From: a virus
Virus record (IMG/VR): IMGVR_UViG_3300045988_171772
Coordinates: 64,001-128,000 of that record
Direction: 5' to 3' (one strand)
Length of the DNA: 64,000 nucleotides
The notes under the pieces are model-generated. The model was not told the origin of the DNA, ran no database searches, and worked only from the letters and a program-made list of their open reading frames with translations. The first letter of the stretch is position 1. Each line of letters begins with the position of its first letter. The position numbers and the translations under genes are program-made. This document shows, one piece after another, positions 55,836 through 63,822 of this stretch.

Positions 55836-55971
55836 AAAAGGCACCTCCGTGATTGCAGTAGAAGAATGTAGTTATTCTTCATCACTTGTGTGTTATACCC
55901 TTTATGACATTTAAAGTATTTCTGATGCTGGTCCGTCGATCTATCCAACACCAGTTTCTCATGAATCCAAT

Positions 55972-55985
55972 ATAATTATATATAG
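55972..55985 (-). promoter_or_regulatory. CTATATATAATTAT variant of the early-type motif
   Basis: Minus strand reads AAATTTCTATATATAATTATATTGG, upstream of gene 55233-55835. Confidence 0.35.
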
Positions 55986-56049
55986 AAATTTTCTCATTCT
56001 CCGAGTTGAGATTTATTGACTTCTGGAGAATGAGAAAAAGACAAAAGAA

Positions 56050-56088
56050 ATCCCTCCATAATGAGTTTTGATCTCACTATGGAGGGAT
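56050..56088 (-). terminator. intrinsic terminator for a minus-strand transcript from 56.1-57.0 kb
   Basis: 11-bp stem ATCCCTCCATA (56050-56060) pairs with TATGGAGGGAT (56078-56088), followed on the minus strand by TTCTTTTGTCTTTTTCTC. Confidence 0.7.
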
Positions 56089-56140
56089 TACCAACCGGCT
56101 CGTGCTTCACCTTTGTTCCAATCGTACATAGCTTGGCCTC

Positions 56141-56587
56141 CTAACCTTGATGTATTTTAACATCTGGCGTATGACATAACGTACAAACACGCATGGGATA
56201 GTATCGCAAGAACGCGTTCAAATCATGGCTAGCAATGGACTTGTACGAAACAGCCAAACATAGGAAGTCCCAGATGAATAAATCGATCCAGTATAAGATC
56301 CATTGCTGGCCATATTCACCAATGCGCAATCGTCTTGACATAGCATCAAGACGCCGTTGTAACGGGTCATATGAAAAGACGTAACGTGTCCTTTGTTTTG
56401 AGTATACCTCACAATGACTTATGGAAATGAAGAGATGAAATAGAATGAAGCCAGTTTCCATGAATGGACCTATCGCGATCTCATCGCGAGATGATTCCTC
56501 ATATACTGTCATGAAAATTAGGAGTTGCGCATAAACAGGATAGCGGCATATAATAATGCGGCGATTATGCGATGTAAATGATACCAA
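56141..56587 (-). CDS. doubtful ORF (hydrophobic, CpG-rich, no SD)
   Basis: 148 codons from a TTG with no SD. Codon usage (CGC, GCG, CCG) is unlike neighbouring genes. Its TAG overlaps the SD of a 13-codon ORF. Confidence 0.2.
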   Translation of the reverse strand: MVSFTSHNRRIIICRYPVYAQLLIFMTVYEESSRDEIAIGPFMETGFILFHLFISISHCEVYSKQRTRYVFSYDPLQRRLDAMSRRLRIGEYGQQWILYWIDLFIWDFLCLAVSYKSIASHDLNAFLRYYPMRVCTLCHTPDVKIHQG

Positions 56588-57055
56588 TTGGATCCAATAT
56601 CAATATCTCGGCTTTCTGCATATGCCTCCATGTACCAAACCAAAGATCTATGAATTACTACAGCTATCGGACAAGCCGGAACATGTCAACGGCTCTAGTC
56701 GGCAGGACATGGTGATCAACCGCCAGACGTTACAAAGCGATCCTGTAATTGCAATCACAGATACTATTCAAGGTTATCCTCATTCTCGTTTTCTAAGAAT
56801 AAGTGCAGCATGTCCCTAGGAGTAAAGAATGATAGAAGCACGAAAACCTAAGATAGACTTTTGGATATAACTATCACATGAGGTTGTGACTACCTAGTGT
56901 GATAGCTAGATATCATACATACATTCCCATTCTGTATAGGAAGAATTACGGTCCATCATAATGACCAAGTAAGTCTTTTTGAGACTTCTCAATCATTACC
57001 TTTTATGTTACACGTCGTTACCATTTTTAATCATGCTTACAGACGAGGCTAGAAA

Positions 57056-57068
57056 AACACCCTGATAA
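57056..57068 (+). promoter_or_regulatory. AACA-N6-TAA motif (candidate late-type promoter)
   Basis: GCTAGAAAAACACCCTGATAAAG, 37 nt before ATG 57106. Confidence 0.5.
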
Positions 57069-57105
57069 AGTTTAGCCTATACACACTAGATATGAGGTGA
57101 CGCAA

Positions 57106-60100
57106 ATGCTTTTTACTGCAGTTGCCAAGAATCGAGTGTATAAGAATCAAGGGATCATTCCTTTTCCCAAAGGTGCTCCTGTAGGTAGAGGAAATCTCTT
57201 ATTTTTGTGCGCTCCAGATGAAAATTCCTCATTCTCTTTGATCAAAAATCCCACTATGGGTTTGAGTGATGCCCGCTATATTCGATATACCGCCGATACA
57301 CGGTATGTCGGTAAAGTAGGAAATCGCAATATCAAAGAAAATCGTCTGAAGGTATTGAAAGATACTTTCACAGAGGAATTTTCTAATTCTGAAATGAATC
57401 TCATTCTCCCCGCTAAGCTGGAGACTGTGATCAAAACCAATTACAATCTCATCTATGACTTTAGTCATTGGAATCGAATCTTCTTCACCTATCGGAGAAC
57501 TGGTAAGGTAGAATTCCTTTGTCAGAAATACATCGAATTTCTGATGAAGGCTTTCAATCGTTCTGAGTTCTCCTCTTATAAGAAGACACTTGTCCTTCCT
57601 ATCAAGGATTGGATGAGTGCTTCTTCTACCCATGAGATTGGTATCACGAAAGCGTATATGGATACCCCGATTTCTATTCTATGTGCCTGTGCCTATCGTT
57701 TTTCTAATCTCATCAAGATGGTGGAGAATGTCGAAATCTATCTGGTAGATCCTACCAATGGAGAATTTCTTCTCTTAGATTCCTCTTTCTTCAATAAGAA
57801 GATGTATCCGAAACTGAAGAATCTCCTGGGTAGAATGACTGCTGTGAAATTCTCTAAAGCCGAAGAGGAAGTATCTGACTCCGAAGGTAATATCAAGGAT
57901 ACCGATATTGCCAAATTGGATAATCAGGTCAAGAATGAGGTTAAGGAGATTCGCCATAAAGAGAAGGTCAAAGAGATTACCAATGTAATCACCGTTGACC
58001 CCTCGAATGAGAATCCCAAACCCGTTCAGTCTTCTTCTCCTGCACCTGCTCCTGTATCTGCAGAGAAGCCTACCTTTGTCAAACCCGAAAAGAAGACGAA
58101 GAAGGAATCTGCAGAGGATGATCTCATTGACTTCTTACTCAGTGAGGATGAAAAGGTAGATCAGACAGTAGCAGACTCTGCAGAAGATACAGAGCCTGAG
58201 ACCAATCCCACGGATGAAGATTCTGAAGAGGATAATATCGATAATGATATTGAATCTGAGGTTGACTCAGTCGTCTATGATTCTGATGAGGATGCTTCCG
58301 AAGAAGATATCATTGATACAGCTGAAAAGAGAGTGAAAGAGAAGGTACTGATCACCAAATTCAAACCTGACTTTGATGAAAAGACCACGGCTCGTATTCG
58401 CTCTCTTATGGATACACAGGATTCTATCATGAATCAGACTGTGCAAGAAATGAAGAAGAAAATCGTTCCTCCTGCAAATCTTGCACCGTATATCAATACG
58501 ATGAATCCTACCATCCAGAAGCCTAAGGCTAAGAATTTCTATAAGCAATACAATGAAACCACTTTTGAGACGGATATCGATAAAGCGGTTGCTAGTCTTG
58601 CTAAGGCAGATTATCCTCTCTTTATCCAAAAGAAAGAAGTAGAAGATACGTCCGATCTCATGAATATGAAGAAGACGTACACTTACACCATGGCGGATAA
58701 AGATGGGCATACCCATATCATTGCCTTTGATGTACCTATCTTCTTGGAGGATCGATATATCTTCCTTGGTGGTAATAAGAAGGTCATTGAGAATCAGATG
58801 CTGATTCTTCCTATTCTCAAATCTGGTCCTGATGAAGTGCAGCTCGTTACTTGGTATAATAAGATTATCATGAAGCGTAGCAGCATGAAGATCGATCAGA
58901 AATCTGAGATCATCAAGAAGTATATTCTGAATCCTCAGAATACTTCTAGATTCAAGGTAAGAATCGGTAGCTGCCAGATGAAAAATAAAGGTACCGATAC
59001 TTCTCTGGACTATGATAACCTGGCTAAGAATATTACCGAATGCACCATCTATGGGAATCGGTTTATCTTCGATACTGCCTATCTTCTGGAGGAGTATAAC
59101 AAGGTACTATCTAAAAATGGTAAGAAACCTATTTCTTCTACCTATGATGCGAATGATGGACTCCTGGTTGGATATAATACCCAGTCTGGCGATCCTATCT
59201 ATGCAAAAGAGGAGAATGGAAAGGGCGTCAATGATATCATTTATAATCTCTTCAAACCCCAGGATATTGCAATTCTTAAAAAGTATACCGTGACTCCTAG
59301 AAGTCTGATGTATGCTCGAGGGAAGATGTACAACCACATGATTCCTATGGTTGGATTCATGTGCTTCTGTGTTGGTTTGACAGAGGTTATGAATAGAGCC
59401 AATATCAAGTATCAGGTTATTGAACCCAATACTAGGTATGATGTCTTGAATCAGAGTGTCATCAAATTCAAAGACAAATGGCTCCTTTGGGATCATTATC
59501 CCTTACATGCATCTTTGATCATGAATGGTCTGTATCAGTATGACTTCAGTAACTATACCCTTGCGGAAGCAGATGGTAAGGAACTGTGGAATGATATCAT
59601 GGCCAATACCTACAAATCTACTCAGGCACTTTTCGTATTGGAGCAATTCAAAGACTTCTTCATTGATCCTATCAGTGCAGAAGTATTGCGGGATATGAAT
59701 ATGCCTACTGATATCGTAGGTCTGATCATTGCTGCTTGTATTCTTCTGAATAACTCTTCTTCGGAGGATATTACAGATCCGAAGAACTTCCGTATTAGAT
59801 CCAATGAGATCTTTGTCCAGTTTATCTATACGGCAGTCGTCAGAGGATATCTGGAATATCGGAAGTCTATCTATAAGAAGAGACCTGTGAAGGTTACTGT
59901 CGATAGAAGCGTGGTATCGAAATCGATCTATGGATCTACAGACAAGACTGGGCATAAACTTCCTTCTTGTGCCATGATCGAAGATTCTTCTATTCTGAAT
60001 CCTGTATTGGAGATGGAAAAGAAAGGATCAGTCTCCTTCAAGGGTCCTTCTGGTATCGGATTGGAGCAGGCTCTTACATTGCCTAAGAGATCTTTCAATC

Positions 60101-61293
60101 CTGGTATGACTGGTACCATTGCGATCTCTACTTCTCCTGATAGAAATGTCGGTGTTTCTAGACAGCTTACACTGGATCCGAACATCGTCTCTGTCAGAGG
60201 ATACATTGGAGATCATGATGAGGATGCGATCCGGGATATGAAGGGAGCCAATCTCTTCTCTCCTGCTGAATTGCTTTCTCCTCCTGGTGCTATGCATGAT
60301 GATAGTCAGCGTACGGCTATGGCCTATAAGCAGACAAAGTACATGGTCTTGACGGAGGGATCTTCTCCTGTCTTGATGGGTAATAAGGTAGAAGCTGCAT
60401 TGCCCTACTACCTGTCTAGAGACTACACAGTCGTAGCACAAGAAGATGGTAAAGTGGCTGCCATTGAGAATGATCAGGTCATCATTCAGTACAAGAATGG
60501 TCGATATGATTCCTTCTCTCTGGTACCGAAACAGCAAAAGAACTCTGCGGGTGGTTTCTACATCGAAGCGTCTTTCCAGACAGATCTCAAAGTTGGAGAT
60601 AAAGTCAAGAAAGGTGAAGTCGTTGCCTATAACCCCAGAGCCTTTACCAAGAATAAAGATGATCTGAGTGCTTCTATGAATATCGGTGTCCTTTGTAAGA
60701 TGGCAATCTGTCCTACATTTGACGAATATGAAGACTCTGCTCCTATCACGACTGAGCTGTCTAAGAGACTTGCTACTGTCATGGTACATGAGCAGAGAGT
60801 AGTATTGTCTAAGGACGCCGTAGTCTATATGATGTCTAAGATTGGTCAGCATGTCGAAGTTGGTGATTCTCTCATTGAGTATGATAACTCCAATGAAGAT
60901 CCCACTATGGCAGAATTGTGGGCCAATATGGCAGAGACATATGGAGAAGCTCTTACAGATGTCGCCATTACCAAATTCAAGTCTGAATTCTCTGGTGAGA
61001 TTACCAATATCAAGATCTACTCTGCTGTGGATGGAGAAGAACTCTCTGACAAGTCTCTGAGAAAGATCGTCCAAGATTATTGGAATACCATCAAGAAGAG
61101 AAATAAGACTCTGGAAAAATACCGGAATCCCGATGATCCTAAGTTCATGCCTTGTGGACAGCAGATCACAGAAATTCCTGGTAAGGTAGAAGCAAAGTTT
61201 GGGAAAATCCTCGGCGAAAATGTCGGGGATGGTGTCCTCTTCTGCTTCTATATCAAACACAAAGATATCGTCAAGAAAGGCGATAAAGTCACT
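57106..61293 (+). CDS. multisubunit RNA polymerase beta-like subunit, exon 1
   Basis: ATG 57106 follows GAGGTGA. SFKGPSGIGLEQA...TGTIAISTSPDRNVGV resembles GPGGLTRERA...CPIETPEGPNIGL. Ends in ...KKGDKVT at 61293, the first half of the GDK..G.KG motif. Confidence 0.85.
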
Positions 61294-61633
61294 GAGAGAA
61301 AATGGCCGTTTAATTGGTGACTCTAAACCCATTTAACTGCTGGAATATCTCGCTAGGTCTTTACTACTCTAAGGAGTGATAATGTAAAGAATAGAGACAA
61401 TCAGCATCCAAGATCTTTCTTATATAAGAAGGATAAGGTTCATCGACTATCGAAAGCATAGTCTATAGAGAAATCTATAGACGAAGAAGCGAGTAGAGTA
61501 CCGAGTATCTTCCTACACATTGATTCTCTCCAAGAAGATACTTCTGGGAAAAGGTGGGCAATTCTATATCTGGTAACTAGGATATAGAATTGAAGATATA
61601 GTCAGGCCTCATAGAGATATGAGTGGAGAAAAG
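61294..61633 (+). ncRNA. group I self-splicing intron (ORF-less, 340 nt)
   Basis: P1: exon AGUCACU (61287-61293) pairs with GGUGACU (61316-61322), with a U.G pair at the splice site. P10: UAAUU (61311-61315) pairs with exon-2 AAUUA (61634-61638). R-like GUUCAUCGACUAU (61438-61450) and S-like AAGAUAUAGUC (61593-61603). Terminal G at 61633. Confidence 0.85.
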
Positions 61634-61846
61634 AATTATACGGCCTTGAAGGGTATCGTATCCAATGTCATTGATCCTGGATATGAACCTAGATCTGAAT
61701 ATAGACCCGATGAAGAGATCTCTATTCTGATGGCACCCGGAGCTGTTCTTGCTCGTAAGACTCCTTCGGTCATTCTCTCAATGTTTACCAATAAGGTGAT
61801 CATTGAATTGAAGAGACATCTAAAAGAAGACTATCTCGGGGAATAA
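61634..61846 (+). CDS. RNA polymerase beta-like subunit, exon 2
   Basis: NYTALKGIVSNV...ISILMAPGAVLARK continues GDKVT and so completes GDKxxxxxGxKG...(D)IVLNP.G.PSR. Stop at 61844-61846. Confidence 0.85.
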   Translation, partial: NYTALKGIVSNVIDPGYEPRSEYRPDEEISILMAPGAVLARKTPSVILSMFTNKVIIELKRHLKEDYLGE

Positions 61847-61853
61847 ATAAAAA

Positions 61854-61900
61854 GATAATAAGGAATGTATGCACAGACGCATACATTCCTTATTATATTA
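61854..61900 (+). terminator. hairpin terminator (18-bp perfect stem)
   Basis: ATAATAAGGAATGTATGC (61854-61871) pairs with GCATACATTCCTTATTAT (61878-61895). Confidence 0.7.
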
Positions 61901-62002
61901 ATAACCGACAATCATCCCACCGATGTATAATGTACCATTACCAGCATTATATGTTACATTCACATCATATTTATAGGTACCAGATTGTCTCTTTAAAGTA
62001 TT

Positions 62003-62468: not shown

Positions 62469-62547
62469 TCCTATGATTATGATGAGTCAAATTAGCCATG
62501 GATTAACCTCGCTTTTGTAATTTAATGAACATTTGGAGGAAATACCT

Positions 62548-62835
62548 ATGACAAATGACATCTGTAGATTTTCAACTAAATATGATATCACCAATATCAT
62601 ATATTCTATAGATCCTGATTATGAGAAGACGCATAATCGGGAGATATACCTTATATGGTATTATGGTCGGGAGATTCTCCCAGGTCATGTAAACTTTGAG
62701 TATACCAAAGGAACGAATCAGCTGTACCTGATTCCAACCTATTATAGAAATCCTGAATTTAGAAAATTGTGTCACCAATTTCCTGGGTTTATGGATCTTT
62801 ATAATGATACTCTTAGAAGATATAACTTAAGTTGA
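62548..62835 (+). CDS. hypothetical protein
   Basis: ATG 62548 follows TTGGAGGAAA. 95 aa. Confidence 0.6.
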   Translation: MTNDICRFSTKYDITNIIYSIDPDYEKTHNREIYLIWYYGREILPGHVNFEYTKGTNQLYLIPTYYRNPEFRKLCHQFPGFMDLYNDTLRRYNLS

Positions 62836-63105: not shown

Positions 63106-63609
63106 TTGAAGTTGGCTACTTATGTAAGAAAACTCAAGGATCGTAGTGGGAATTATATAGTACCTGCAACTCGATCTACGGGAGTGTATCTGAATGACAA
63201 TCAGACATTACAGGGTTGGATAGACAATATGGAAGATAAGAAGTTTGATCTTCTTACTGTCTATCCTGTAGGCGCTATCTTTCAATCTACTTCTGATGGA
63301 GTTGTCCAAACCGGTGGTGAGGCATCTCATACATTAACAACTTGGGAAATGCCTACTCATAATCACGGATTTGTCAATAACTCATACACACTTGGTAATG
63401 GCGGGACTGGATGGGAAGGAGATTTGAATCTGGTTATTGGTGGTCATGAAGACTATATCGTATGCTTCAAGACTGGACCTCTTGGAAGACCTAATGCGGC
63501 ATTCGCATCTTCATCTCAGCATAATCATACCATTGATGGTGGTAATGGAGGAGCTCATAATAACCTACCTCCCTATTATGCAGTGAATAACTGGAGAAGG
63601 ACTGCATAA
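63106..63609 (+). CDS. tail-collar-domain (tail fibre / MdpB-like) protein
   Basis: 167 aa. SHTLTTWEMPTHNH and GGAHNNLPPYYAVNNWRRT are the hallmark tail-collar motifs. TTG start is uncertain (63106 or 63112). Confidence 0.75.
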   Translation: MKLATYVRKLKDRSGNYIVPATRSTGVYLNDNQTLQGWIDNMEDKKFDLLTVYPVGAIFQSTSDGVVQTGGEASHTLTTWEMPTHNHGFVNNSYTLGNGGTGWEGDLNLVIGGHEDYIVCFKTGPLGRPNAAFASSSQHNHTIDGGNGGAHNNLPPYYAVNNWRRTA

Positions 63610-63746: not shown

Positions 63747-63822
63747 TGGAGCTAGTGACAGGAATCGAACCTGCAACCTGCTGATTACAAATCAGCTGCA
63801 CTGCCAATTGTGCTACACTAGC
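63747..63822 (-). tRNA. tRNA-Thr (anticodon UGU), CCA encoded
   Basis: Minus strand reads GCTAGTG-TA-GCAC-AATTGGCA-GTGC-A-GCTGA-TTTGTAA-TCAGC-AGGTT-GCAGG-TTCGATT-CCTGT-CACTAGC-T-CCA. Full cloverleaf, 76 nt. Confidence 0.9.

Follow-up and report, generated by a model that had tools for sequence, protein, structure and literature searches.

In phage AR9, an intron of the late gene g189 houses the gene g190 together with its promoter (PMC5312081). The annotation of g189, 'virion RNAP beta subunit', joins six pieces and contains g190, an HNH gene; RF00028 matches five times in g189 and four times in PBS1. In PhiPA3, the gp210 intron interrupts the virion RNA polymerase (vRNAP) β gene after a conserved DD, in the region of E. 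coli D675 (Birkholz et al. 2024, PMC11620839). The part of the report on the Jug phages considered here describes gut huge phages whose essential genes are split by many group I introns and HNH genes, some of the splicing having been confirmed with metatranscriptomes (PMC12880540). The β gene is thus already known as an intron target; the insertion site described below, between its codons 1399 and 1400, appears to be new.

The locus lies in a 64 kb stretch of phage DNA that was analysed as a whole (hereafter the window). An open reading frame on the plus strand, 57097–61320, reads ...KKGDKVT ERKWPFNW* at its 3′ end, the stop being the ninth codon past T. The frame resumes 340 nt downstream, where an ORF in another frame holds NYTALKGIVSNV...ISILMAPGAVLARK... 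and stops at 61846. Joining T61293 to A61634 takes out 340 nt and is in frame (4,197 + 213 nt), just as the initial annotation of this DNA had read it; the spliced product is 1,469 aa from GTG 57097, which opens the ORF, and 1,466 aa from ATG 57106, which public gene calls use. The parts of the locus are:

57097–61293, plus strand: exon 1, virion-type RNAP β-like; opens at GTG 57097, ends ...KKGDKVT
61294–61633, plus strand: group I intron, 340 nt, without an ORF; RF00028 match, P7.1/P7.2 present, no P2
61318–61320, plus strand: in-frame TGA within the guide sequence; the exon-1 frame stops here if the intron is retained
61634–61846, plus strand: exon 2, NYTALKGIVSNV...KEDYLGE*, 70 aa and stop, in another frame than exon 1
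61855–61896, no strand assigned: long inverted repeat directly past the stop codon, from a consensus scan; terminator-like on the minus strand only

A Pfam-A scan of both exon products returned no family, and the identity of the protein was established with PHROGs and PDB sequences. The profile phrog_3148, 'RNA polymerase beta subunit', aligns with residues 274–1467 of the spliced protein at E 4.9e-144, the alignment reaching profile position 1421 of 1424. Thermus β matches the region around HDD (residues 1067–1069; E 4.4e-9 against PDB sequences), and the same output aligns KKGDKVTNYTALKGIV of the spliced protein with Thermus QVGDKLANRHGNKGVV without a gap, a match not significant alone. Two features of RNAP β, HDD and the GDK-x8-KG motif, are both present in the spliced protein, and the insertion falls between codons T1399 and N1400, within the latter, active-centre motif. 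Megablast of 57000–62000 against GenBank phages gave no match at the nucleotide level; the best phage matches of the protein are annotated as virion RNAP β (AR9 g189). The interrupted gene is the virion-type, presumably late, RNAP β of an uncultured jumbo phage of ~200–276 kb, a distant relative of AR9 and PBS1.

Several features of the gene and its surroundings were noted in passing. The N-terminal part of the protein is long (residues 1–480; DNA 57097–58500), has an acidic low-complexity stretch at ~330–420, and lies outside the region alignable with cellular β while being partly covered by the phage profile. The ~1.25 kb directly 5′ of the gene (55845–57096) hold no ORF above 148 aa on either strand. 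On the 3′ side, the inverted repeat at 61855–61896 probably marks the end of the transcription unit. Beyond it, the DNA directly 3′ of the β gene is non-homologous among strains of the same phage (window 61847–62530 against L158–L170): the strains carry different ORFs there (161 aa; 225 aa on the minus strand; a Phage_gp49_66 protein), and the window stretch has no long ORF. The stretch 3′ of the intron-bearing gene looks like a variable cassette. Further along, a tRNA-Thr with anticodon TGT lies at 63747–63822 on the minus strand, on which Rfam and ARAGORN agree, and its neighbour, ORF 63106–63609, matches tail and tail-fibre PHROGs.

Homologues encode the junction uninterrupted. This holds for 80 of 86 metagenomic homologue proteins, the closest over the junction being P0028 with KKGDKIT-NYTALKGIISHVIDEGYEP (GDKIT-NYTALKGII), and it bears out the GDKVT|NYTALKG alignment of the initial annotation; five of the 86 end at or just past GDKxx. 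By tblastn against GenBank phages, 23 of 23 records run through the junction in one piece at 26–35% identity: AR9/PBS1-type Bacillus phages, Staphylococcus jumbo phages, phiR1-37, a Listeria phage and two Fusobacterium phages. The metagenomic protein search missed the window's own 1,404-aa product, which is on record in the collection, so that a missing near-identical intron-less allele among the matches is not informative. The ligated message is predicted to contain the 30-mer GGCGATAAAGTCACTAATTATACGGCCTTG, whereas unspliced RNA would contain GTCACTGAGAGA and GAAAAGAATTAT. Exact scans of IMG/VR gave zero for a degenerate version of the ligated junction and zero for the unspliced one, and so yield no frequency of intron-less alleles of this phage. 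A single-protein query of IMG/VR for related loci found no match, an alignment query being needed, and extending the comparison to 150 loci, drawn from metagenomes and from IMG/VR, yielded ten further interruptions at the GDK motif.

The intervening sequence itself is recognized as a group I intron. The covariance-model check suggested for it came out positive: RF00028 scores 75.2 bits (gathering score 50; E 2.9e-17) over 61280–61624 on the plus strand, covering model positions 1–253 of 253. In the 64 kb window this is the sole group I match by Rfam, the other Rfam match being the tRNA. Its minimum free energy (MFE) z-score against shuffles is −3.49, and unconstrained MFE folding recovers P3, P4, P5, P5a, P5b, P6a, P7.1, P8 and P9. 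The ORF list shows no ORF of at least 40 aa within 61294–61633, and with it no homing endonuclease, in line with the initial annotation. The fold, on the plus strand throughout, comprises:

61287–61293, plus strand: P1 5′ strand, AGUCACU, the last 7 nt of exon 1; 5′ splice site after U61293
61311–61315, plus strand: P10 guide, UAAUU, 5 bp with exon 2 AAUUA at 61634–61638
61316–61322, plus strand: internal guide sequence and P1 3′ strand, GGUGACU; G61316 in a U.G wobble
61328–33 / 61553–58, plus strand: P3, CCCAUU/GGUGGG
61338–61406, plus strand: P4–P5 domain, with P4 at 61338–43/61401–06
61348–51 / 61394–97, plus strand: P5
61358–64 / 61384–90, plus strand: P5a
61366–69 / 61374–77, plus strand: P5b
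61408–09 / 61437–38, plus strand: P6; the P6–P6a domain is 61408–61438
61413–21 / 61426–34, plus strand: P6a, with a 4-nt loop
61445–50 / 61598–603, plus strand: P7, GACUAU within GUUCAUCGACUAU and AUAGUC within AAGAUAUAGUC
61461–68 / 61475–82, plus strand: P7.1, perfect 8 bp
61504–12 / 61534–42, plus strand: P7.2, perfect 9 bp; P7.1 and P7.2 together span 61461–61542
61560–70 / 61581–91, plus strand: P8, 11 bp
61608–13 / 61618–23, plus strand: P9, 6 bp, GAGA tetraloop; its 3′ strand holds ATG 61619 of a 75-aa ORF

The R- and S-like elements that give P7, the two perfect hairpins, the 5-bp P10 and the G at the last intron nucleotide had all been picked out beforehand and recur here at these positions; 61633 is the terminal (omega) G, with the 3′ splice site directly after it. 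P2 is absent from the fold. IA-type group I introns are typical of phages, and from the P7.1/P7.2 architecture we would place the window intron in subgroup IA, phage type. Two other kinds of element were considered and rejected: an intein, the insert having no reading frame that runs through it, and a group II intron, on size and core motifs.

The boundaries rest on P1, P10 and the frame. P1 pairs 61287–93 with 61316–22 at 7/7 bp, with U61293.G61316 at the splice site, the arrangement first proposed for it. The same phosphodiester bond (GDKxx|) is occupied by introns in five metagenomic relatives (L157, L003, L005, L006 and L140, the contigs of L140, L005 and L006 stopping inside the intron), and P1 is 7/7 bp in all of them despite differing exon codons. 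Compared with AGUCACU/GGUGACU in the window, it reads AGUGACU/GGUCACU in L006, ACUGGCU/GGUCAGU in L003, L005 and L140, and GAUCGCU/GGUGAUC in L157, so that all five show compensatory changes. P10 differs in length: L157 has 7 bp, the window 5 bp and L003 3 bp. That the intron is real with its ends a few bases off 61293|61294 and 61633|61634 might be read from Rfam's alignment, which draws P1 in another register, with mismatches. The proposed sites, however, are the only ones that combine U at −1 with a terminal G, keep the join in frame and preserve the GDK-x5-ALKG spacing of the homologues, and the covariation of P1 and P10 in other introns fits precisely this register; we regard displaced boundaries as extremely improbable. 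By these comparisons, the covariation-supported P1 is the 7-bp helix (61287–93/61316–22) and not Rfam's version.

Covariation extends to the rest of the core. Searching other phages' loci with the window intron (nhmmer) gave 17 distinct related introns at 61–67% identity, most of them at another site of the β gene, near TAM codons at about residue 1075; that of L018 maps 3′ of the β gene, and the same-site intron of L157 is only a weak match. A MAFFT alignment of the window intron with these 17 and eight strain variants (26 sequences) has 89.7% paired cells, uncorrected, against 36–48% with the 3′ partners slid, and both-side changes in 33 pairs; its covariation score of 0.233 compares with 0.103 ± 0.006 for shuffles and was reached by 0 of 500. 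MAFFT shifts the 3′ strand of P3 in the relatives by one column, and the helices were recounted from fixed anchors, giving 88–100% standard pairs compared with 0–70% for shifted strands. Several pair types occur per position in P3, P5a, P6, P6a, P7.1, P8 and P9. In the relatives P3 is CCUCUU/GGGAGG or CCUCGU/GCGAGG; P7.1 has 98% standard pairs over 10 variants; and in P5a six of seven pairs show both-side changes in the family alignment, two of which also change among the window phage's own strains. P4 and P7 are invariant across the 26 aligned sequences, with P4 covarying once L157 and L003 are considered (UGCGGG/UCCGCA). On this comparative evidence, the group I helices are supported by covariation.

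The intron is also conserved in the population of the window phage. Nine distinct strain haplotypes on contigs of 202–276 kb keep it (9/9, 96–98% identity), in a look-up by the 75-aa ORF starting in the intron that can find intron-containing alleles only. The intron varies at 29 of its 340 nt, exon 1 at 36 of the 375 nt compared and exon 2 at 21 of 213 nt, and none of the variable intron sites falls in P1/guide, P10, P3, P4, P5, P7, J8/7 or P9. The strain changes in P5a are A-U to G-C (61363/61385, with G.U intermediates) and C-G to G-C (61364/61384). Variation distributed in this way is what a ribozyme under selection shows, unlike a relic.

These observations bear on the reading in which the gene is truly split and never spliced, a dead intron relic separating two proteins of 1,407 aa (1,404 from ATG 57106) and 75 aa (from ATG 61619) that assemble non-covalently. 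Split β and β′ genes are normal in jumbo phages (PMC7598289), and gene callers report the 75-aa ORF, whose start codon belongs to the intron, in 290 blocks of the public collection. Its ATG 61619, though, is buried in the P9 stem with no evident ribosome-binding site, the cut would fall through the GDK-x8-KG motif itself, and the homologues are contiguous at the junction; an invariant ribozyme core with compensatory changes in P5a is likewise unlike a relic. A permanently split gene is, in our judgement, very unlikely. We put the probability that 61294–61633 is a functional group I intron with the boundaries given at about 90%, and infer the splicing itself from the sequence comparisons.

For such an intron, the steps would be as follows. 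In the folded pre-mRNA the last seven bases of exon 1 would pair with the guide GGUGACU (P1), and a free guanosine held in P7 would attack after U61293. With exon 2 aligned by P10 (UAAUU with AAUUA), the 3′-OH of exon 1 would then attack after G61633, and the ligated message would encode GDKVT-NYTALKGIV within the full-length β-like subunit (1,466 or 1,469 aa). Translation of unspliced RNA would end eight intron-encoded residues past T1399, at the TGA 61318–61320, and this product would lack the last 70 residues and with them the second half of the motif.

In vivo, many group I introns depend on proteins for splicing. The fold could accordingly be genuine but inefficient alone, relying on a protein such as an RNA chaperone or maturase, encoded by host or phage, or splicing only partially, in which case intron removal would limit or time production of the virion polymerase. 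The absence of P2 points this way, as do changes that some strains tolerate, namely a C.A mismatch in P8 (61565; six of nine other strain contigs) and differences in J4/5 (61346/61347; two strains); the AR9 orthologue is, moreover, a late gene (PMC5312081). Against it, the core is complete and invariant across strains, the covariance-model score is well above threshold and no cofactor is indicated by the sequence. We give dependence on a protein, or partial splicing, a small chance.

The window intron has relatives, with and without endonuclease genes, at and next to its site. At the same site, L157 and L003 give the complete insertions:

L157:3629–4019: same-site intron, 391 nt, no ORF
L003:2222–3343: same-site intron, 1,122 nt; its P6 loop carries an HNH_3/NUMOD4 ORF of 255 aa

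In relatives that have an HNH endonuclease gene, it is housed at P6/P6a. A sister lineage is inserted 4 nt downstream of the window site (GDKxxY-U|UY), with P1 GCGUACU/GGUACGU and P10 of up to 7 bp. It has no ORF in L004 and L142–145, and a 280-aa HNH ORF (HNH_3/NUMOD4) in the P6 loop in L030 and L141; two ORF-less examples are:

L004:1091–1497: intron, no ORF
L142:3630–4083: intron, no ORF

Both lineages thus occur with and without the gene, and their endonucleases are homologous (35% identity, E 4e-44). The HNH ORFs run into the ribozyme core (L003:3170–3206; L030:4700–4750), their last conserved residues, (C/R)STT, being encoded by UCAACGACU of the P7 5′ strand, so that HNH gene and catalytic core overlap. 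RF00028 misses the introns of L003 and L004 even at E ≤ 1, and those of L157, L140, L142 and L030 at the gathering threshold. Since the missed introns of L003, L004, L157 and L142 have P1, R/S elements, the terminal G and a restored frame, Rfam-only intron counts in such phages are underestimates.

Other insertions in the gene were left out of these lineage classes. L074 has a 300-nt insertion (2274–2575) at GDKVS/FYTALK, the same position, with no Rfam match and no recognisable R/S core elements, and this may be a different kind of intervening sequence. The β gene of L023 (2177–4260) has three insertions, two of them RF00028 introns (2177–2436 and 2649–2908) and the third a group I-like stretch of ~340 nt that adjoins KG|DK, a few bases upstream of the window site; in L007, too, an insertion lies a few bases upstream, the contig stopping within the intron. 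In L023 and L074, the frame is not restored by any pair of insertion ends with U at −1 and a terminal G. In many relatives (L020–L027, L049, L126–L138), gene calls begin at the residue aligned to window M1083, with an intron just upstream. This site, at residues ~1075–1083 (DNA ~60320–60345), seems to be the gene's most often occupied intron site; it is empty in the window and is also one of AR9's sites.

Lacking an endonuclease gene, the window intron would need the enzyme in trans for mobility. No sign of a free-standing downstream endonuclease, as in AR9 g188, was seen: the ORFs 3′ of the β gene in L158 and L161 have no obvious endonuclease-like sequence, and window ORF 62533–62835 has no PHROG match. 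We infer that the copy cannot move by itself and is now vertically inherited. Most simply, it would descend from an endonuclease-carrying intron such as that of L003 by loss of the gene, a history suggested by relatives whose ribozyme cores are not the closest to the window's. The closest cores are those of introns at the other site of the β gene, near codon 1075, which suggests that the core was re-targeted to the new site, by reverse splicing or guide-sequence replacement, and not inherited there. In gut jumbo phages, several intron lineages may share a hot spot in the ~20 nt encoding GDK-x8-KG. Tentatively, and with the odds against it, these points might be combined: a hot spot, a re-targeted core, and an ORF-less copy kept for its destruction of an endonuclease site. 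If this is true, the copy would destroy the recognition site of the endonucleases of co-infecting relatives, a passive immunity in phage–phage competition.

The intron matters for annotation. In hundreds of public assemblies, gene callers divide β, an essential polymerase subunit, into a truncated product of 1,404 aa and an orphan of 75 aa, and recognition of the intron restores the real 1,466-aa product. Among uncultured relatives from gut and rumen, introns have repeatedly entered the catalytic GDK...KG motif, some with an HNH endonuclease gene and some without. Related ribozymes with differing guides and insertion points offer material for the study of intron target change, and the same set could be used to study protection by occupancy against competitors' endonucleases, as for PhiPA3 versus PhiKZ. 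The window intron leaves the known working of group I introns unchanged, and elements of its kind are well known in phages.

Among the described systems, T4 td/nrdB/sunY, SPO1 and Twort-type Staphylococcus introns share with it the R/S elements (GUUCA-CGACUA / AAGAUAUAGUC) and P7.1/P7.2, and part of the window intron core is 74% identical to Staphylococcus Twort/K-like phage introns. These IA introns also insert at active-site codons, with an in-frame stop soon past the 5′ splice site. The window intron differs in having neither P2 nor an ORF and in targeting an RNA polymerase, not a DNA-metabolism gene. The Jug phages have genomes of 360–402 kb with a mean of 18.5 introns each, whereas the 64 kb window has a single Rfam group I match; the interrupted genes named in the part of the report considered are terL, nrdD and DNA polymerase, and RNAP β is not mentioned there (PMC12880540).

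The orthologue in AR9 is g189, with 33% aa identity across the C-terminal part, and its introns belong to the same ribozyme family, with a core 77–78% identical over ~130 nt and both ORF-less and HNH-containing (g190) versions. Its interruptions, however, map to window residues ~990, 1021, 1083 and 1154, with none at 1399/1400, and neither AR9 nor PBS1 has an interruption across GDK...KG. The two phages also differ in host and lineage, the window phage being uncultured with close relatives in gut and rumen metagenomes. The initial annotation had pointed to an intron in an RNAP gene of AR9-type phages and, on that condition, to a recurring target site: it was right as to the gene, but AR9 has its introns at other sites, and the recurrence of the site comes instead from the metagenomic relatives. 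The PhiPA3 gp210 intron is likewise a group I intron in an invariant catalytic motif of a jumbo-phage virion RNAP β, and its enzyme is of the same class, an HNH nicking-type endonuclease, as that of the same-site relative L003; its site lies ~330 codons upstream of the window's, and its endonuclease is active, whereas the window intron has none (PMC11620839). To the introns listed for jumbo-phage virion RNAP β, five in AR9 and one in PhiPA3, the window adds a new site.
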